A DNA stretch of 64,000 bases from Bacteroidetes bacterium UBA1941 (GTDB lineage Bacteria > Bacteroidota > Bacteroidia > Chitinophagales > LD1), in contig DDEZ01000010.1 in the NCBI GenBank assembly GCA_002336805.1, forward strand, positions 74,895 to 138,894, in the 5' to 3' direction. A model generated the notes under the pieces. The model saw nothing but the letters and a program-made list of their open reading frames with translations, was not told the DNA's origin and made no database searches. This document shows positions 47,713-57,304 of the stretch, in pieces. The position numbers and the translations under genes were made by a program. Position 1 is the first letter of the stretch. Each line of letters opens with the position of its first letter.

Positions 47713-48669
47713 ATGGGCAGTACTGAATTCTTAAATCTTTCTGACAAGGATAAATACTACTACTTTACCTCATGTATTGATACTGAAGAGCAACTCGAAG
47801 ACTTTTGGAAGGAGTTAGTAGAAGTGAAGCAGCGTAAGGAGTTTATATTTAGAGGAGTAGAAGAAGCTAGGTATAAACTGTATAATTCTGCGCAGCGGTA
47901 CTTTTTGGAATACAAAGATTCAAAATTATACTGCGTTGGTTATGATTTGTTTATACAAAATAGCATTGAGACAATTCGCACGTGGAATAATAATAGCGTT
48001 GAACGTTATTTAAGTCAAAGAGGCATAGGTGCGAATAGTATAGCGTATCTGAGTCTGATGCAGCATTTTGGTGTTCCAACTCCTCTATTGGATTTTACTT
48101 ATAATCCTTTTGTAGCTTTGTATTTTGCATCCAAATTCACAAAGGTTGAGTCATGCGTAAATCAAATTGATAATTATTCATCATTGATTCTGGTGCATAG
48201 TCAACATTTCATTATCCAAAATGCGTTGGATTATTTTCAGCAACTTTTGAAATCTTATGATGATGGTGTTGTACCTTATCGAGCACTAAAGTTTGCTCTT
48301 TTTCTACTGTTCGATAGTAATAATGATGTTTTCAAAATTACCAATAACCACAATATCATAAATCAAGAAGGAGTATTATTCTTTAACGATCATGCGAAAC
48401 TACCTTTGGAAGAATATTTCACTACAACGAGTAAATACGCCAAAGCATTAAGAGGGCAGGATGTAAATGATGGTGAGAATAGATTATTTGCTTGTTGGAA
48501 TATTTCTAAGCGTTTGCATAGTATTATTCAAAGGAGACTAAGAAAGGATTTCTCAATTGATAGAGAATTTTTGTTCCCGGACTTTACGAAACTTGAATCT
48601 GCGTTTCATAGTTCTGTCGAAAGATACAATCGTCAATTTCCCCCGCCGGAAAGTCCTATGTGGCGATAA
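47713..48669 (+). CDS. FRG-domain protein (function unknown)
   Basis: FIFRGVEEARYKLYNSAQRYF (the F/Y-R-G motif) and MQHFGVPTPLLDFTYNPFVALYFA (the conserved second block of the FRG domain). The gene is visibly AT-rich relative to both neighbours. Confidence 0.85.
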   Translation: MGSTEFLNLSDKDKYYYFTSCIDTEEQLEDFWKELVEVKQRKEFIFRGVEEARYKLYNSAQRYFLEYKDSKLYCVGYDLFIQNSIETIRTWNNNSVERYLSQRGIGANSIAYLSLMQHFGVPTPLLDFTYNPFVALYFASKFTKVESCVNQIDNYSSLILVHSQHFIIQNALDYFQQLLKSYDDGVVPYRALKFALFLLFDSNNDVFKITNNHNIINQEGVLFFNDHAKLPLEEYFTTTSKYAKALRGQDVNDGENRLFACWNISKRLHSIIQRRLRKDFSIDREFLFPDFTKLESAFHSSVERYNRQFPPPESPMWR

Positions 48670-49598
48670 AGCATCTTATCATACCGCATCACCACAGAGA
48701 TGTCTTTGCCCCGCAGATAGGAGAGTAGCTCCTGCTCCGGTCCCCTGTGTGTGAGCAGCACAAAGTCGCCACCCCAGGCGCCGAGAGATTTGACCTCACC
48801 CCAGTAGTCGGAGAATAGCTGCGACTTGATCGTAGGCGTTTGGAGTGCCTCAGATACGATGGCCTCATGCTCGCGGATGATCTGCTCCATCTTTTCCAGC
48901 GTCTGGCTTTGCAGCATGCTGTCGGTCAGTTTGCTCAGCCATATCACGGCTTCTTTATTGGCCTTGATGCGTTCGCGGTAGGAGGTGATACTGGTGGAAG
49001 AGACGACCTTCTTGCCCGTATAGGCAAAGTACAACTGCTCTGCATACGGCGGCAGGAAATGAACCTGCTCCCACGTAGCCTTGCCGTCTTTCAGCGCGTA
49101 TACTATCGGCTCATCACTCCCGGCTACGGCTACGTCATAGCCCGAGCCGCCCATTGTAGCGTGCAGCAGTGCCACTCCATCCACACCAGCCCATGCAGAC
49201 AGGCAGTACACGAGTGTAGAGCTGGTGCCTAGTCCCCATTCATTAGGAAACTCGAGACTGGTCTCTACGGCTATATCATTGTCTCCGAAGAGAAAGGACG
49301 GATTCATTAGTCTCGCCTGCTGGAGCATCTGAGAGAGTGTGCGTGCGTCTTTGCTATCAGTATTGATGCACTGCAGCGTCTGCTTGTCAAAAGTGAGATG
49401 CAGCCAGGGTTCTTTGAGGTGATTTAGCGCTATCCAGTAGAGGGTATTGCTTTGCCCGCTCAGTTCTTTCACGCGTAGGTGCTGGCCAAATTGTACGGGT
49501 ATGGTCAATACTTTAGCTCCTTCCAAAGCAAAATACTCGGAGGTCAGCATGAGTTTGCCGTGGCCGTAATAGTGGTGCTGGTCGGATGTGTGCTGCAC
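48633..49598 (-). CDS. GHMP-family kinase of the Bacteroidota mevalonate pathway (GYDIA-type)
   Basis: GHGKLMLTSEYFALEGAKVLTIP, GLGTSSTLVY (the GHMP ATP motif) and GGSGYDVAVA (the GYDIA-like motif, as I recall the family name). Its GTG start overlaps the HMGR stop by 1 nt (TAGTG). Confidence 0.72.
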   Translation of the reverse strand: MQHTSDQHHYYGHGKLMLTSEYFALEGAKVLTIPVQFGQHLRVKELSGQSNTLYWIALNHLKEPWLHLTFDKQTLQCINTDSKDARTLSQMLQQARLMNPSFLFGDNDIAVETSLEFPNEWGLGTSSTLVYCLSAWAGVDGVALLHATMGGSGYDVAVAGSDEPIVYALKDGKATWEQVHFLPPYAEQLYFAYTGKKVVSSTSITSYRERIKANKEAVIWLSKLTDSMLQSQTLEKMEQIIREHEAIVSEALQTPTIKSQLFSDYWGEVKSLGAWGGDFVLLTHRGPEQELLSYLRGKDISVVMRYDKMLYRHIGLSGGGN

Positions 49599-50941
49599 TA
49601 GCTGCTCTTTCGTAGCGTTTCGAGATAGTCGCGTACTGACGATACGGAGATCGTCTTATCCTCAAAGTAAACCCTCGCTTTCTCAGCCTCAGTATCTGTG
49701 GCCTGGTACTGCGCGAGGATATTGGTGAGGTGCATCTTCATATGGCCCTTCTGTATGCCGGTAGTGGTCAGGGAGCGCACTGCGGCGAAGTTCTGCGCCA
49801 GGCCTACTGCCACGATCACAGACATGAGCTCCTTTGCATTAGGATTGCCCAGCAGCTCCAGGGAGCGCTTGGCCAGCGGGTGTAGCGAGGTAAGGCCACC
49901 CACGGTACCGATAGCCAGCGGCATGGTCATACCAAAGGTGAACACACCATCTTTTACCGTGCAGTCACTGAGACTGCGATATTGGCCATCACGACTGGCA
50001 TAGGTATGTGCGCAGGACTCTACCGCGCGGAAGTCATTGCCGGTAGCCATCACCACGGAGTCTATACCGTTCATGATGCCTTTATTGTGCGTAGTGGCTC
50101 TGTATGGATCTATGGTAGCGATGGTCACCGCCCGGCGGAATTTCTCCGCAAACTCCTGTGCACTCATCTTGCCTCCCTCAAAGGTGCCAAGCTCTTCTAT
50201 CTTACATGAGACCTCGCAGCGCACCACGCAGTCTGGTGTATAGTTAGAGAGGATGCACATCACGATCTCGATGTCTTTCTCCGTAGGAGTGAAGATCGGG
50301 CTCTCGTCCATCATGTCCTTGAGCAGTGCGCCAAACTCCTCCAGGCAAGAGTTGATAAAGTTGGCCCCCATAGAGTCTACCGTCTCAAAGTAGCCGCGTA
50401 TCTGGTAGTAGTTTGGCTCGATGTGAGAGAAGTCTATCAGCTCGAGGTCCTTGACCCCGCCACCGCGCTCCTCCATCTTGGCAGTGATAGGCTTGACGCC
50501 TGCTATCAGCTTGCTCTTTATCTCTTTGAAGTAGGCTATGAATTTATCCTTGTCACCCTTATAGATGATATGTACCTGGCCGATCTTGACTGTAGACACC
50601 ACGGTAGATTTAAATCCGCCACGTGTCAGCCAGAACTTCGCCGCATTGGACGCTGCCGCTACCACAGAGCTTTCCTCTGTGACCATTGGCACGGCGTAGA
50701 CCTTGTCATTGATCTTAAAGTTGGGCGCGATACCAAAGGGTACGGGGAAATTGGCGATCGTGTTTTCGCTAAAGCCGTCGAGCAGCTTCTGCGATTCTAT
50801 ATTGTCATGCCAGAATCCGGCAAACTCATTGAGTACCTCGATAGGATTGGCATAAAGGAAGTTTTTGGCTATCCATTTTATCTTATCGCGCTTGTTGAGT
50901 TTCGAGAAACCCGTGATGATCTGACCTTCTTCCTCCGTCAT
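49598..50941 (-). CDS. hydroxymethylglutaryl-CoA reductase, class II
   Basis: ENTIANFPVPFGIAPNFKINDKVYAVPMVTEESSVVAAASNAAKF, DSMGANFIN and ATGNDFRAVE match the class II (bacterial) HMGR blocks. Confidence 0.9.
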   Translation of the reverse strand: MTEEEGQIITGFSKLNKRDKIKWIAKNFLYANPIEVLNEFAGFWHDNIESQKLLDGFSENTIANFPVPFGIAPNFKINDKVYAVPMVTEESSVVAAASNAAKFWLTRGGFKSTVVSTVKIGQVHIIYKGDKDKFIAYFKEIKSKLIAGVKPITAKMEERGGGVKDLELIDFSHIEPNYYQIRGYFETVDSMGANFINSCLEEFGALLKDMMDESPIFTPTEKDIEIVMCILSNYTPDCVVRCEVSCKIEELGTFEGGKMSAQEFAEKFRRAVTIATIDPYRATTHNKGIMNGIDSVVMATGNDFRAVESCAHTYASRDGQYRSLSDCTVKDGVFTFGMTMPLAIGTVGGLTSLHPLAKRSLELLGNPNAKELMSVIVAVGLAQNFAAVRSLTTTGIQKGHMKMHLTNILAQYQATDTEAEKARVYFEDKTISVSSVRDYLETLRKSS

Positions 50942-51039: not shown

Positions 51040-52410
51040 CTAAGCAAAAACCTTTTCTGCCACGCTGAAAGTGGCTCTGGTAAACATGCCCGGACGCTGG
51101 CTCAGCACCAGCGGGGAGATGATATGCACGGCATTGCGGATCATGCGGTAGCTGCGGCTGATATTAGCCGGAGTGGGCCGGGGCAGGATGATCCTGCGCG
51201 CACCATGCACCGCTACGGCAAAGAAATGCCGGATCAGTTTATTGCTGTCCCTATTGATGGCCGAGAGGAGGGAGAGGGGCACCTCTGAATTTTTGCCCCC
51301 CTGCTGCAGATAGCTGTAGCAGGCCTCTTTCAGATCCGGGTCACTCATTACCTTATAGAGCGCATCGGCCAGGATATTGATGCTGGCATTGGCTGCATAG
51401 CGTGTTTCATAGAAGGCGGCTACTGCGTTTTCTATGTTTTCCTGCGTAAAGCTCTCGCGGATGGCTATCAGCCTGTCAGCCAGATTGTGTACATCTGTCA
51501 GGGCTACAGTCATGCCGCCGCCGGTGAGGGGATGGCGCATATTCAGTGAGTCGCCTACGAGTACAGCACCGGCTTTCAGTCGCGGATTGGCAGGTATCAG
51601 GTGGTTTGGCATCACACGAAATTTGCCTTCTTCTACCGCACGGAAGTATGCCGGCTGTATTTCCTTTGGCATCTGGCTGCCGATGGTCTCGCGGAGGTAG
51701 TGCGTCAGTTCCTCGCCTTTGCGTGGTGCCTGGTCTGAGGGGAAGTCTATCAGTACGCGCGTCTCCTCAGACGATACCGGATACACCAGCACCGGACTCG
51801 GCTCCGCCGCTATCACATGCCCGTGACCGGGAAATGGTAGCTCACAGTCCTTCATCAGCAGGCCGAGAAAGTAGCTGCTCACCGTCTTGGTCGTGTCAGA
51901 CAGCTTCTCGCGAAAGGCCGAGAACATACCATCACACACGATGGTCAGCGGTGCAGACACGAGAGAGGTAGCATCGGCTCCTTTAAGGATATATTGTACG
52001 CCGGAGATGACACCATCTGCTTCTGTGAGGCTGACTGCATTGCCCTCCAGTACGGTGATATTGTTTTGGGCTAAAAGCTCCGCACGGAGTGCCTGCAGCA
52101 GTTTGCCATTGCGCAGGCCACGGCCTGTCTGTGCGCCCGGATACTCTATGGAGAAGTGCTGGTCACGCAGGAAGAGAGCATAGCCGGTGATCTCCTGTGC
52201 ATCATAGCCCTCCAGCGCCTTGCTGAGGCCCATCTGCTCTAGCTGTGTCACACCGCCGGGCTGCATCAGCTCACCTACTATGCGGTCCTGCTCACGCATA
52301 TCTTTCTCCACCACCGCTACGCGGAAACCATGCCTGCCCAGATAGGCAGCTATCGAGGCACCAGCCACGCCGGCACCTATCACGCAAATGTCATACTTAC
52401 TAGCACTCAT
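51040..52410 (-). CDS. squalene monooxygenase (squalene epoxidase, ERG1-type flavoprotein)
   Basis: YDICVIGAGVAGASIAAYL (the FAD GxGxxG), IVGELMQPGG (the ERG1-family GEL(L/M)QPGG motif), and VGDSLNMRHPLTGGGMTVAL. Confidence 0.85.
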   Translation of the reverse strand: MSASKYDICVIGAGVAGASIAAYLGRHGFRVAVVEKDMREQDRIVGELMQPGGVTQLEQMGLSKALEGYDAQEITGYALFLRDQHFSIEYPGAQTGRGLRNGKLLQALRAELLAQNNITVLEGNAVSLTEADGVISGVQYILKGADATSLVSAPLTIVCDGMFSAFREKLSDTTKTVSSYFLGLLMKDCELPFPGHGHVIAAEPSPVLVYPVSSEETRVLIDFPSDQAPRKGEELTHYLRETIGSQMPKEIQPAYFRAVEEGKFRVMPNHLIPANPRLKAGAVLVGDSLNMRHPLTGGGMTVALTDVHNLADRLIAIRESFTQENIENAVAAFYETRYAANASINILADALYKVMSDPDLKEACYSYLQQGGKNSEVPLSLLSAINRDSNKLIRHFFAVAVHGARRIILPRPTPANISRSYRMIRNAVHIISPLVLSQRPGMFTRATFSVAEKVFA

Positions 52411-52429: not shown

Positions 52430-53632
52430 TCAGAACAGCACCGCCTTCTGCAGATCGATCTCCTCCATAGGTTGTATCTTACTCTTATAGCGGATCTTGT
52501 GGAGATTGGCTATGATGGTGTGGCAGCGCTCCTTGGTCAGGTCGTAGTGCGGGTCGTTTTTGTCCAGCTTTTTCAGGATGTCGTTTGCAAATTTCTCCAT
52601 CACCTTATGCACGCTCTCCATGTCTGTGGTATGCAGCATCAGCACGGCGGCTATGCCCTTGCGGATCTTGACCACCTCACGGTACACGTCAGGGTTGTTG
52701 TAGATCTTGGCCAGGGTGGCTATGGCCATCACCTGGGGTATAGCGCAGAAGCGGAACACCTGTGGATGGCGTATAAGGCTCAGATAGTCAATGCAATCAC
52801 CAACATATTGTAACGCATCGGTTACCAGATCATTGAGACAGGCACGGCTCTCGGCAGAGGTCGGATCCTGCATCAGCTCCTCCAGGCGGTGGGTGTACTT
52901 ACCCCATATTTCCTTTGGCCAGAAGCTACGGCCGAGGCTCAGGTCCTCATAGTAGTCGCGGGTGATATTGGTCTTCTGCAGCAGCAGGCCCATAGAGTTG
53001 GACAGCTTCAGTTGGTCTTTGAGCGCAGCGCTCTCTATACCTGAGGCAGAGAAAAGGCCCGACAGGCCGATACCCACGATACCCGCCACATAGTGGCAGT
53101 AGTGGTCATAGTCATGCAGGGTCACCAGCTTGCGCTCGGCAAAGTCTGCCATGCCGTTGCCCATCTTCCTGGTACTGGCCAGGATCACCTGCTGATAGTC
53201 TATCTTGAGAGATTTGAAGACGCGGATCACTTTATCAAAATTGGCCAGCAGCACGCGGTAGTCGTCAGAGTCACCCACCCCTTTGATCTGCCAGCCATCC
53301 TCCACACACTTCATGTGAAACTCGCGCAGCAGCGGCAGGCGCAGCTCGGCAGGGTAGAGCATATCATCCTCTACAGAGTCCAGGCCGCGGAGTACGAGGT
53401 AGTAGATACAAACAGGATCGCGCAGCTCTGTCGGCAGCTGATTGATGACCACGGCAAAGGAGCGGGACACCTTATTCAGCGCAGCATAGCAGAAGTCGCG
53501 GTCGCTCAGCTTCTCTGCCAGTACCTCCAGCGGCTCGTCGCTCTGGCGGATGTCAAAGCCGCCAAACTTGAGGCGAAACATGGCGATGATTTCATTAGGT
53601 CGGTGTGCGGATCTGATCAGGTCGCGTACCAT
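52430..53632 (-). CDS. squalene synthase (farnesyl-diphosphate farnesyltransferase, eukaryote-like ERG9 type)
   Basis: CYAALNKVSRSFAVVI, YYLVLRGLDSVEDDM (the first Asp-rich motif), MGLLLQKTNITRDYYEDL (the second Asp-rich motif) and GRSFWPKEIWGKY. All closely parallel eukaryotic SQS blocks. Confidence 0.9.
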   Translation of the reverse strand: MVRDLIRSAHRPNEIIAMFRLKFGGFDIRQSDEPLEVLAEKLSDRDFCYAALNKVSRSFAVVINQLPTELRDPVCIYYLVLRGLDSVEDDMLYPAELRLPLLREFHMKCVEDGWQIKGVGDSDDYRVLLANFDKVIRVFKSLKIDYQQVILASTRKMGNGMADFAERKLVTLHDYDHYCHYVAGIVGIGLSGLFSASGIESAALKDQLKLSNSMGLLLQKTNITRDYYEDLSLGRSFWPKEIWGKYTHRLEELMQDPTSAESRACLNDLVTDALQYVGDCIDYLSLIRHPQVFRFCAIPQVMAIATLAKIYNNPDVYREVVKIRKGIAAVLMLHTTDMESVHKVMEKFANDILKKLDKNDPHYDLTKERCHTIIANLHKIRYKSKIQPMEEIDLQKAVLF

Positions 53633-53857
53633 AATTTTTTATTTTCGGGTTAAGTGAAATGTTTGTTTTTATCAATGAAATACCCGTATCTTGCAACTAT
53701 AAAGTTTAAGCCAACGGATACTTTGTTTAAATCAAAGCTAGATTAAGTCGGTTGAACTGCGAAATTTTATCGGCAAAAAATTATACACAGGATTTTTCCA
53801 CCTGAGGCCTTCGGAAAGCAATACGCAGATAGCGTTTTGATACAGAAAAGATTAAAC

Positions 53858-56128
53858 ATGTACGAAAAGAAAACCTGGGCTCACTGGCATCTCACATCTG
53901 ATCGCGGCAGGTCGGTCTGGCACTTCCGCTCACCGCAGGGGCTGCCGGCAGACTGGCGCGGACCGCTGTCTACAGATCAGCAGGCCTTCCTCCGCGAGAT
54001 GGAGGAGGACTTTGTCTATGACAAAAAGCAAAACCCCAATAGCGCAGACTGCGTCTACCGCAGCCAGCGTGCAGTGATCAGTACGGACCGTGACCAGCCA
54101 CACCGTGATGCCCGCCAGTCTGTACGCGAGGCGATCAACTACTATCAGACCCTCCAGACCACAGACGGCAACTGGCCCGGAGACTACGGAGGCCCTATGT
54201 TTCTACTGCCGGGACTGGCCATCGCCTCCTATGTCACAGAGAGCCCCTTTACCGCGCCGGAGGCCATGCTGATGCGCCGCTATATGCTAAACCACCAGAA
54301 TGATGACGGCGGCTGGGGCCTGCACCTGGAGGGGCACTCTACCATGTTTGGGACGGTGCTGCAATATGTAGCCTTACGGTTACTAGGCGCACGGGCAGTG
54401 GATACTGAGGTGGTCAGAGCGCGAAAATGGATACAGGTACACGGTGGTGCTACGGGCATACCGAGCTGGGGCAAGTTCTACATGAGCCTGCTGGGCCTCT
54501 ATGAGTGGGAGGGCTGCAACACCCTGCTGCCAGAGCTATGGCTCCTGCCAAAATCACTGGCTATCCATCCCTCACACTACTGGTGCCATACGCGCATGGT
54601 GTACCTGCCCATGGCCTACTGCTATGGCCACAAGATCGTGATGAAGCCTACTGCGCTGATACAGGAGCTGCGTACGGAGCTCTATACTGAGCCCTACGGC
54701 CAGATCCGCTGGGCTGCCTGCCGGGACCTGTGCAGCGATACGGATATCTATTTCCCGCAGTCAGCTACGCTGAAATCGCTGAACGGTGTACTCAATGTCT
54801 ATGAGAAAATGCACCTAAAGGGTACCCGCAAAAAGGCGCTTCGCTTTGCGCTGGACTATATCAATGCCGAGGACCAGCAGACCAACTATATCAATATCGG
54901 CCCGGTCAATCAAGCGCTGAACTCGATAGCCGTATGGCATGCCTATGGGCGCGAGTCGGAGCAGTACAGAAAGCACCGTGAGCGCTGGGCCGACTACCTC
55001 TGGGTGGCAGAAGATGGCATGAAGATGCAGGGCTACAATGGCTCTCAGCTGTGGGATACGGCCTTTGCCATGCAGGCGGTGAAGGAGGCCGCGATGGATG
55101 GTGAGTTTGCACAGATGGTGCAGCGTGGATATGACTATGTAGACAAAAGCCAGATACGCGGTGAGGTGGTGGACAGAGAGAAATTCTTCCGCCACATGCA
55201 GATAGGTGGGTGGCCCTTCTCTACGGTAGATCATGGCTGGCCTATCACAGACTGCACGGCAGAGGGCCTCAAGACCTTTATGCTGCTGAACCCTCAGGCT
55301 GAGCCGGAGCGGCTCTACCAGGCTGTGAATGTGCTGCTTTCCTACCAAAACGCTGACGGGGGCTGTGCCAGCTATGAGCTGACCCGCAGCCCTCAGTGGC
55401 TGGAGCTGCTCAACCCCTCAGAGGTCTTTGGCAATATCATGATAGACTACTCCTATACGGAGTGTACCTCGGCCTGTGTGCAGGCGCTGATCGCCTTTCA
55501 CCAGCGGTATCCGGAGCATCGGCTAGAGGAGGTGAAAAGCTTTATCGAGAAGGGTGTACGCTTCATCCTCTCGCAGCAGCGGGCTGATGGCTCGTGGTAC
55601 GGCTCGTGGGCAGTGTGCTTCACCTATGGTACCTGGTTTGGTGTGGAGGCGCTGAGCCGCTATGTAGCTATGAATGGCGCTGGCTGGCAGATGGACATCA
55701 GGGACAAGGCCAAAACTGCTTTGCAGAAAGCTACCGGGTTCCTTCTAGCCAAACAAAACGCTGATGGCGGCTGGGGAGAGTCTTTTGAGAGCTGCGTGCG
55801 CAAGGAATACATCCCATCACCACAGTCTCAGGTGGTCAATACGTCTTGGGCGCTGCTGTCGCTCTTAGCCGCAGGCTGTACACAGTATGACAAACTGGAG
55901 CATGCTGCGCAGCTTCTTATTTCCCGGCAGGAAAAGAACGGCGACTGGCCGCAGGAGAATATCAGTGGCGTATTCAACCACAACTGCATGATCACGTACA
56001 CGAGCTATCGCAATGTGTTTCCTATCTGGGCGCTGGGCAGGTTTGCGCGCAGCGGCAATAATCTACTTGAATGGACTGCGGAGGACATAGTGGCGCGGTT
56101 TGAGCCTGCCGGTAAAGAGGCCCATTAG
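53858..56128 (+). CDS. oxidosqualene cyclase, cycloartenol-synthase-like
   Basis: Start taken at ATG 53858 (the track start at 53837 is TTG). VDHGWPITDCTAEGLK carries the OSC DCTAE catalytic motif (nt 55250-55264), not the DxDD of squalene-hopene cyclases. Repeated QW motifs are present (QNDDGGWG, QNADGGCASYE, QRADGSWYGSW, QNADGGWGES, QEKNGDWPQE). Confidence 0.9.
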   Translation: MYEKKTWAHWHLTSDRGRSVWHFRSPQGLPADWRGPLSTDQQAFLREMEEDFVYDKKQNPNSADCVYRSQRAVISTDRDQPHRDARQSVREAINYYQTLQTTDGNWPGDYGGPMFLLPGLAIASYVTESPFTAPEAMLMRRYMLNHQNDDGGWGLHLEGHSTMFGTVLQYVALRLLGARAVDTEVVRARKWIQVHGGATGIPSWGKFYMSLLGLYEWEGCNTLLPELWLLPKSLAIHPSHYWCHTRMVYLPMAYCYGHKIVMKPTALIQELRTELYTEPYGQIRWAACRDLCSDTDIYFPQSATLKSLNGVLNVYEKMHLKGTRKKALRFALDYINAEDQQTNYINIGPVNQALNSIAVWHAYGRESEQYRKHRERWADYLWVAEDGMKMQGYNGSQLWDTAFAMQAVKEAAMDGEFAQMVQRGYDYVDKSQIRGEVVDREKFFRHMQIGGWPFSTVDHGWPITDCTAEGLKTFMLLNPQAEPERLYQAVNVLLSYQNADGGCASYELTRSPQWLELLNPSEVFGNIMIDYSYTECTSACVQALIAFHQRYPEHRLEEVKSFIEKGVRFILSQQRADGSWYGSWAVCFTYGTWFGVEALSRYVAMNGAGWQMDIRDKAKTALQKATGFLLAKQNADGGWGESFESCVRKEYIPSPQSQVVNTSWALLSLLAAGCTQYDKLEHAAQLLISRQEKNGDWPQENISGVFNHNCMITYTSYRNVFPIWALGRFARSGNNLLEWTAEDIVARFEPAGKEAH

Positions 56129-57304
56129 CGCATTCACTATCGGGTTGCGGTGTCTGAGATAGCCGTACATGGGCTGCGGTATAGCACCTATGGTACTTTT
56201 CACCTCAGGTGCTGTGCGGCCAAAGTGCAGCAGGCGCAGGTCATGCTCCGTAGCATAGCGCACTACATCATATAGCATCCGCTGGTACAGGTTGTGCTCC
56301 TTATTGACAGAGTAGTCTATGCCGCAGTAGTGTACCTCCGTCTTGTACGGCAGGATGAAGAGCGACATAAATCCCACCATCCGTCCATCCAGAAAGTACC
56401 CGAACACCTTGTACATATCCGGACTCTGGCGCAGCTGTGCAGGGTAGTAGTCCTTTGGTAGTTTGGCTATGTTGAAGTCTGCTTTGTCAGCCACATTGCG
56501 GTAGAGCTGGTACGCCCGCTCTATATTCTCCTCCAGCTCGTCTGCGGTCAGCTGGCGCGAGGTGAGCTGCTGGCTGGTACTGATGATCTTTTTGGCGCGT
56601 ACGCGGTACTTGGACGAGATGGCAGCCAGATAGTCGTCAAAGCTGTGCCACTCCTGCGGCAGCCGCATACTCATATCAGCCTCTACATAGATACGCTTAT
56701 AGTTATTGGTCAGGAATGCCTCATCAAAATCACCCACCGGCTCATACATATCAGGCATGAGCACGGCCTTGATGTATTTGCGCTGAGCGAGTATGTGGTC
56801 TATAGTATGTGAGAGAAAATAGGACCGCTCCTGTATGGTAAACTCAGGCAGGAAAGAGATGCCCTGCTCACCGGTGATAAAGAGATTGCCGCTCACCAGC
56901 AGGGGGATATCTATTTTGGCCACGAGGCCTTTGGTCAGGTTGAGCAGCTTATTTTTCAGGCCCTCATTATCCTGCGGGAAATAAGCCGTAAGATTAGTAC
57001 CGCGAAACCTGACCACCTGAAAGTAGCTGACACCTATCAGGCGTCCCTCGCGGCGGATCAGGGCGTAGAGAAACTCCATCTCGCCCGTCAGTGTGCGCTC
57101 CAGCAGCTGGAGATAGGCTGGCTGTAGCAGTGGCTGGTCGTGGCCTATAAATCGGAGCCAGTCTGCCTCCGGCACTGCGGCTATGGTATCGTACAATGAA
57201 ATATCTACAGCGGTCTCCCGGCTGATAGCAGACGAGCGGGGACAAAGACTCACAGACATGCAGCTGGACATATCTGACAGGGTTTGGTAATCGGGAGTAG
57301 GCAT
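56063..57304 (-). CDS. GNAT-fold FemAB-like / DUF482-like acyltransferase family protein
   Basis: 413 aa. The N-terminal LYDTIAAVPEADWLRFIGHDQPLLQPAYLQLLERT, the central DYLAAISSKYRVRAKK and the C-terminal GIDYS...LYQRMLYDVVRYA resemble the FemAB-like GNAT arrangement. This is a family-level call only. The 3' end overlaps the OSC 3' end by 66 nt. Confidence 0.45.
   Translation of the reverse strand: MPTPDYQTLSDMSSCMSVSLCPRSSAISRETAVDISLYDTIAAVPEADWLRFIGHDQPLLQPAYLQLLERTLTGEMEFLYALIRREGRLIGVSYFQVVRFRGTNLTAYFPQDNEGLKNKLLNLTKGLVAKIDIPLLVSGNLFITGEQGISFLPEFTIQERSYFLSHTIDHILAQRKYIKAVLMPDMYEPVGDFDEAFLTNNYKRIYVEADMSMRLPQEWHSFDDYLAAISSKYRVRAKKIISTSQQLTSRQLTADELEENIERAYQLYRNVADKADFNIAKLPKDYYPAQLRQSPDMYKVFGYFLDGRMVGFMSLFILPYKTEVHYCGIDYSVNKEHNLYQRMLYDVVRYATEHDLRLLHFGRTAPEVKSTIGAIPQPMYGYLRHRNPIVNALMGLFTGRLKPRHYVLRSPFK

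Follow-up and report, generated by a model that had tools for sequence, protein, structure and literature searches.

Which protosterol does a bacterial oxidosqualene cyclase (OSC) make, cycloartenol or lanosterol, when its gene lies in a Bacteroidota genome beside the genes that would supply its substrate? We addressed this question for an OSC gene in a 64,000-nucleotide stretch of Bacteroidetes bacterium UBA1941, a member of the Chitinophagales (assembly GCA_002336805.1, contig DDEZ01000010.1, positions 74,895 to 138,894 of the forward strand). This whole stretch is called the window below. A preliminary description had read the three product-specificity residues of the enzyme as Tyr/His/Ile and had called it a cycloartenol synthase, as in some myxobacteria. 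Our analysis of the sequence indicates that cycloartenol (EC 5.4.99.8) is likely to be the main product, because the triad is homologous to that of plant cycloartenol synthase, the second-sphere residues are kept, the substitutions of arborinol cyclases are absent, and the enzyme groups, in a strongly supported clade, with that of Fluviicola taffensis, a cycloartenol producer. The gene is located as follows.

53858..56128, + strand: OSC gene, predicted cycloartenol synthase, 756 aa from the ATG at 53858

The longest open reading frame (ORF) of the gene runs from 53837 to 56128 on the + strand, where an in-frame TTG at 53837 gives a 763-aa protein; residue numbers here are those of this 763-aa form. 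The ATG at 53858 is probably the real start, since the closest relatives are also 756 aa long. The protein contains the Pfam domains SQHop_cyclase_N (156 bits) and SQHop_cyclase_C (195 bits) and, with 680 bits, clears the cut-off of 323 set for the NCBIfam model TIGR01787. Its best solved relative is human lanosterol synthase (LSS; 1W6K), matched at E 5.7e-209 and 49% identity, with residues 92-738 of the query on 73-721 of the chain (HMMER). AlphaFold2, run on an alignment of 77 sequences, produced a confident model (pLDDT 92.4), whose top fold match was the human enzyme with bound lanosterol (1W6K; TM 0.86/0.90), followed by a plant OSC and then by squalene-hopene cyclases. The fold is the two-domain (beta-gamma) alpha/alpha-barrel of the squalene cyclases with QW repeats (QW-type motifs at residues 572-587 and 631-646), and the protein carries the xxDCTAE motif of the OSC branch (ITDCTAE at residues 470-476) rather than the DxDD motif of squalene-hopene cyclases. 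Residues Asp472, Cys473 and Cys543 align with human Asp455, Cys456 and Cys533. A superfamily search of the 4.2-Mb genome returned this OSC as the single squalene/oxidosqualene cyclase and no squalene-hopene cyclase. Judged by its sequence, ORF 53858..56128 codes for a working member of the OSC family, a class II triterpene cyclase that most likely acts as a cycloartenol synthase. The residues on which the product assignment turns are listed here with their codons, numbered against Arabidopsis CAS1 (AtCAS1, or AtCAS) and human LSS.

55034..55036, + strand: Tyr400, codon TAC; equals AtCAS1 Tyr410 and human LSS Thr381
55232..55234, + strand: His466, codon CAT; equals AtCAS1 His477 and human LSS Cys449
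55244..55246, + strand: Ile470, codon ATC; equals AtCAS1 Ile481 and human LSS Val453
55250..55264, + strand: DCTAE motif with the catalytic Asp472 (human Asp455, codon GAC at 55250-55252) and Cys473, placed by alignment to human LSS
54185..54187, + strand: Tyr117 in GDYGGP; equals AtCAS1 Tyr118 and human Tyr98; Leu in cucurbitadienol synthases
54587..54589, + strand: His251, preceded by Trp249 (human Trp230); equals human His232 and AtCAS His257; not the Ser/Tyr of arborinol cyclases
55373..55375, + strand: Tyr513; equals human Tyr503 and AtCAS Tyr532; proposed partner of the His in abstraction of the C19 proton

The three codons named for the triad in the preliminary description (TAC, CAT and ATC) proved exact and in frame with the OSC ORF, where they encode Tyr, His and Ile. 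The two peptides that hold them were found as KMQGYNGSQLWDT and STVDHGWPITDCTAE; counted from the catalytic Asp, the His is at -6 and the Ile at -2. The check that had been proposed for positional homology gave a clear answer for human LSS: Tyr400, His466, Ile470 and Asp472 fall on Thr381, Cys449, Val453 and Asp455 with no gaps near the motifs (HMMER, 1W6K), and a MAFFT alignment, independent of HMMER, produced the same triad mapping. The enzymes compared directly were human LSS, the F. taffensis OSC (see below) and, by its published motifs, AtCAS1. In AtCAS1, Tyr410, His477 and Ile481 lie in KMQGYNGSQ (406-414) and TADHGWPISDC (474-484) (PMC7060231). The window OSC matches the first motif at 9 of 9 positions and the second, as TVDHGWPITDC, at 9 of 11, including the Pro at -3 that corresponds to AtCAS Pro480. 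The preliminary description had named other residues at the three positions as an outcome that would count against it, and neither the human LSS alignment nor the AtCAS1 motifs gave that outcome. The Tyr/His/Ile (Y/H/I) triad is shared by all 121 aligned sequences (the window OSC and its 120 best homologues) and by 142 of 151 full-length homologues pooled from two homologue searches. The triad is a conserved character of the clade, and chance agreement is not the question at issue.

How well these residues predict the product has been examined in plants and in bacteria. All CAS1 enzymes need His477 and Ile481, and LAS1 enzymes need Val481 (PMC4208727). In AtCAS, the single change H477N is enough to give a committed lanosterol synthase and I481V has part of this effect; Tyr118, Tyr734, Tyr532 and His257 shape the outcome, the last three being required, and Y118L leads to cucurbitadienol (2026 preprint). 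In bacteria, Ile versus Val at position 453 (human numbering) tracked cycloartenol versus lanosterol production in every strain analysed (Wei et al., 2016, PMC4919349), and metagenomic OSCs that make cycloartenol have been tested as well (PMC12324236). The window OSC has the residues expected of a cycloartenol synthase both in the triad (Tyr400, His466 and Ile470 at AtCAS1 410, 477 and 481) and in the surrounding network that supports C19 deprotonation, where the equivalents of AtCAS Tyr118, His257, Tyr532 and Tyr734 are kept as Tyr117, His251, Tyr513 and Tyr721, and that of Pro480 as Pro469. More broadly, 31 of 38 active-site positions of human OSC are identical, including D455, C456, C533, W387, F444, W581, H232 and Y503, and the seven differences are the triad together with C233T, I338V, I452P and T502S. 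The combination that marks lanosterol synthases, Val453 with Thr381 and Cys449 or Gln449 in animals and fungi, or with Asn449 in plants, is not found in the window OSC, which has Ile470, Tyr400 and His466 instead. Neither does it carry the pattern of arborinol and eudoraenol cyclases (W230S, H232Y and N697Y with a change at 503 or 521, human numbering): the window OSC and all 120 of its closest homologues have the sterol-type residues Trp249, His251, Tyr513, Phe531 and Asn714 (window numbering).

We placed the enzyme in a maximum-likelihood tree (LG+G4, quick search) of 102 OSCs, comprising the window OSC, related loci, human LSS and representatives at 50% identity. The window OSC grouped in one 22-member clade (SH-aLRT 100) with L044, an OSC that we infer to be that of F. 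taffensis DSM 16823 (Fluta_3214). L044 lies at 3.70 Mb of its genome, a position that fits the locus tag Fluta_3214 among 4,131 genes, and carries a Y/H/I triad in GAKMSGYNGSQ and STIDHGWAITDC; it is 49-51% identical to the window OSC. Cycloartenol is the sole sterol of F. taffensis (Wei et al., 2016, PMC4919349). The window OSC therefore shares its clade with the OSC of a cycloartenol-making host. Triads in the 22-member clade are Y/H/I in 18, Y/H/V in 3 and Y/N/V in 1, and the window's own nine-member subclade (SH-aLRT 98) is Y/H/I throughout. A basal A/H/V group falls outside. Human LSS groups with other T/C/V sequences outside the window clade, and the fungal-type T/Q/V sequences are likewise in other clades. 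A sequence with an arborinol-like pattern (P0279; Ser/Tyr at 230/232 and Tyr at 697) is in a clade separate from that of the window OSC.

These placements bear on the possibility that the enzyme is a lanosterol synthase in spite of its triad. Several homologues are labelled 'lanosterol synthase' by JGI pipelines, and close relatives within Fluviicola carry Y/H/V, which implies that position 453 is evolutionarily labile. The JGI labels, however, are automatic annotation, the window OSC has both Ile470 and His466, and no tested bacterium with Ile453 made lanosterol. As the human and fungal-type LSS sequences also sit in other clades, we consider a lanosterol synthase highly unlikely.

Fluviicola itself provides a side observation on this position. 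Its OSCs occur in two forms, Y/H/I with HGWAITDC (L042, L044 and L045, including F. taffensis) and Y/H/V with HAWAVTDC (L041, L049 and L053); this natural exchange of Ile and Val at 453 could serve as a test of the rule based on that one residue. OSCs were found in 16 of 36 genomes of the GTDB genus that contains a Fluviicola metagenome-assembled genome (MAG). The OSC of the Wandonia haliotis cluster (P0129/P0199, Flavobacteriales) has Ser for the conserved Tyr98 and a Y/N/V triad like that of plant lanosterol synthases, and its neighbour in the tree is a Fluviicola MAG enzyme with Y/H/I. Two long 'hypothetical proteins' from plant assemblies, P0015 (Oryza meyeriana, 1257 aa) and P0154 (Populus, 1155 aa), rank high among the bacterial OSC homologues; P0015 appears to contain more than one OSC-like segment, and its triads differed between two alignments.

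The preliminary description thus held in its main part, a cycloartenol synthase, which both the residues and the clade support, and needs amending in its comparison, as the closest characterised precedent is the enzyme from Fluviicola, of the Bacteroidota, and not those of myxobacteria. The F. taffensis OSC comes from the same phylum and clade, has Y/H/I at 381/449/453, and shares with the window OSC the conserved W230, H232, Y503 and N697. It also has the window residue at five of the seven sites that differ from human OSC (the triad, V357 and S512). It differs at the -3 position, where Ala (HGWAITDC) replaces the Pro of the window enzyme (HGWPITDC), which is the residue of plant CAS1. The myxobacterial OSCs of Stigmatella aurantiaca and Cystobacter fuscus resemble the window OSC in that they have Ile at position 453 and their hosts accumulate cycloartenol (Wei et al., 2016, PMC4919349); in published trees, they belong to Group 2c, whereas F. 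taffensis is in Group 2d. Arabidopsis CAS1 shares Tyr410, His477, Pro480, Ile481 and Asp483 with the window OSC. By contrast, AtCAS Thr531 is replaced by Ser, and the plant protein is a eukaryotic ER enzyme that feeds a long phytosterol pathway (SMT, CPI, CYP51), whereas the window genome is without CYP51.

A further possibility is that an active enzyme does not make clean cycloartenol, and that its product is mixed or consists mainly of parkeol or of some other isomer formed by deprotonation of the C9 cation. Gemmata makes both lanosterol and parkeol, as does a hot-spring metagenomic OSC, and some first- and second-shell residues of the window OSC are unlike those of plant CAS and F. taffensis (Pro469 versus Ala, Thr252, and Ser512 versus AtCAS Thr531). 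Against a mixture, His466 and Ile470 are both in place, AtCAS1 gives lanosterol only when 477 or 481 is altered, and F. taffensis, with the same Y/H/I triad and S512, yielded cycloartenol only. We therefore regard a mixture or a parkeol-type main product as improbable, and retain cycloartenol as the predicted main product.

The analysis shows the gene, its fold, the residues with their positional homology, the clade shared with the enzyme of a cycloartenol producer, and the genes for substrate supply. From these we infer expression, activity, product and catalytic mechanism of the window OSC, the mechanism by analogy with work on the plant and human enzymes. Mevalonate-pathway genes, squalene synthase (SQS) and squalene epoxidase (SQE) would successively provide (3S)-2,3-oxidosqualene as the substrate. 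Asp472 of the DCTAE motif would protonate the epoxide, the substrate would fold in the chair-boat-chair conformation and cyclize to give the protosteryl cation, whose charge would reach C9 through hydride and methyl shifts. The His466/Tyr513 pair, positioned by Ile470 and by the Tyr400/Tyr117/Tyr721 network, would then take a proton from the C19 methyl group, so that the 9beta,19-cyclopropane ring closes and cycloartenol, not lanosterol, is released. It is this predicted last step that would set the enzyme apart from human LSS, where lanosterol arises by C8/C9 deprotonation.

Several points weigh against this assignment. With 696 bits, the OSC falls short of the curated cut-off (851 bits) of TIGR03463, a narrow NCBIfam model for the 2,3-oxidosqualene cyclase subfamily. 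This shortfall reflects the narrow seed of the model, and the OSC identity is not in doubt, because TIGR01787 is passed and human OSC is matched at the E-value given above. The nearest enzyme that is linked to a measured product is only ~50% identical to the window OSC. Moreover, there is precedent for a wrong product assignment from the residues of bacterial OSCs: in 2016 the enzymes of Eudoraea were listed as lanosterol synthases, and their product later proved to be eudoraenol. AtCAS1 needs the triad to form cycloartenol, yet other protosteryl-derived products are not excluded by the triad alone, and the residues that turn AtCAS into a cucurbitadienol synthase sit outside it (2026 preprint). 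Finally, sterols were not detected in cultures of some bacteria that carry an OSC; one of these, Corallococcus coralloides, has OSC and SE homologues and produced squalene only.

Two of these points lead to the same alternative, a non-sterol or more rearranged triterpenol such as arborinol, eudoraenol or cucurbitadienol. Arborane triterpenols are made by OSCs of Eudoraea, which also belongs to the Bacteroidota, and by metagenomic OSCs, and in the Eudoraea enzymes W230S, H232Y and N697Y together with changes at 503 or 521 are responsible (PMC12324236); cucurbitadienol synthases, for their part, are distinguished by residues outside the triad. The residues concerned can be read directly in the window OSC. 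Trp249, His251, Tyr513, Phe531 and Asn714 are of the sterol type, not Ser, Tyr, Cys or Val, and Tyr, and the arborinol-like P0279 lies in a different clade, while Tyr117 is kept where cucurbitadienol synthases have Leu. We consider such a product extremely unlikely.

The example of C. coralloides raises a different alternative, that the gene is intact and yet silent or inactive in the organism, which would then make no sterol under normal conditions. The genes upstream of the OSC bear on this point.

52430..53632, - strand: squalene synthase (SQS), eukaryote-type; PF00494 at 167 bits and TIGR01559 at 444 bits against a cut-off of 287; supplies squalene
51040..52410, - strand: squalene epoxidase (SQE), ERG1 type; PF08491 at 285 bits; makes 2,3-oxidosqualene
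49598..50941, - strand: HMG-CoA reductase, class II; PF00368 at 300 bits and TIGR00532 at 274 bits; mevalonate-pathway precursor supply
48633..49598, - strand: GYDIA-family GHMP kinase, mevalonate-pathway type; NF040656 at 314 bits

The SQS side of this cluster and the OSC diverge on opposite strands across a spacer of ~200 bp, and this SQE-SQS/OSC layout is kept in 11 related Chitinophagales loci. In ten related loci (L010, L013-L015, L017, L021-L023, L027 and L029), a polyprenyl synthase, probably farnesyl diphosphate synthase, directly abuts the OSC; the window cluster instead includes HMG-CoA reductase and the GHMP kinase. By contrast, the Fluviicola OSC loci (L023 and L040-L055, each ~5 kb or less) contain no homologue of SQS, SQE or polyprenyl synthase, except for the polyprenyl synthase beside the MAG L023 OSC. 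A scan of genome contigs yielded Bacteroidota MAG relatives, which are Chitinophagales or Chitinophagaceae, and one Verrucomicrobiaceae MAG. Of the genomes sampled, 15 of 17 in the family and 33 of 201 (~16%) in the order have an OSC, which makes it near-universal in the family. The retention of the OSC across the family, with SQS and SQE beside it in 11 loci, argues for purifying selection on a pathway that would be working. As the ORF is also intact and has all of its catalytic residues, a silent or inactive gene seems very unlikely, and we return to an active cycloartenol synthase as the predicted function.

What the organism may do with cycloartenol is a further question. Comparison of the related loci found no sterol-modifying gene as a conserved neighbour of the OSC, and no downstream sterol genes were found in the F. 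taffensis genome (Wei et al., 2016, PMC4919349). Two genes outside the window were considered.

C12:601391-602650, outside the window: sole cytochrome P450 of the genome, CYP97/CYP4/CYP102-like
C8:97442-98521, outside the window and unlinked to the OSC: ERG4/ERG24-family sterol reductase homologue, 359 aa; PF01222 at 175 bits

The P450 was rejected as a CYP51 candidate, as its best PDB matches are CYP97, CYP4, CYP46 and CYP102, with no CYP51 among the top 60. A genome search combined with the PDB comparison thus found no CYP51, the single P450 being otherwise assigned. A genome search with Sterol_MT_C gave no match, and its controls were equally silent, so that this search is uninformative on sterol methyltransferase. 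The best PDB match of the ERG4/ERG24 homologue is Delta14-sterol reductase (4QUV, E 1.3e-41). Among the 201 genomes of the order, this family has homologues in 20 of the 33 with an OSC and in 11 of the 168 without one, a co-occurrence with an odds ratio of 22 and a Fisher p of 1e-11, uncorrected for phylogeny. In the relative L011, ~5 kb separate an orthologue from the OSC. This pattern suggests that the protosterol may be reduced further in this lineage. It is possible, although we regard it as rather doubtful, that cycloartenol is not the end product and that a short, bacteria-specific pathway takes the lineage on to a cycloartanol-type protosterol, a cyclopropyl sterol that is not demethylated and has a saturated side chain. 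If so, saturated protosteroid biomarkers would have a source in bacteria that are common in soil, sludge and freshwater. Also in this genome are nine genes of the FA_hydroxylase family (ERG3/ERG25/'sterol desaturase'), among them C7:424238-424639 and C7:425539-425943, which are ~1 kb apart.

The window OSC is typical of its clade, a group of cycloartenol-type OSCs of the Bacteroidota that dates in the literature from 2014-2016. Such enzymes are already described and common in the phylum, and the finding is correct but ordinary: the locus is one more well-conserved Bacteroidota example, which leaves the picture of Wei et al. (2016) and later surveys unchanged. That bacteria can be sources of cycloartenol and other protosterols matters for the reading of sterane and protosteroid fossils as eukaryote markers and for the reconstruction of the origin of sterol synthesis. 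In practical terms, the locus is an easy candidate for expression, and, if the organism is in culture, a lipid profile could show how a bacterium without CYP51 uses cycloartenol.

One further gene adjoins the OSC at its 3' end.

56063-57304, - strand: FemAB-like/GNAT acyltransferase; convergent with the OSC, whose last 66 nt it overlaps

This gene was rejected as a member of the pathway, as its position next to the OSC is confined to the four closest relatives (L001 and L003-L005) and does not extend across the clade. The antisense overlap coincides with a tail of ~25 residues past the usual FPIWALGRF end of the OSC (56059-56125; residues 734-756 of the 756-aa form), where the pLDDT of the model is <50.

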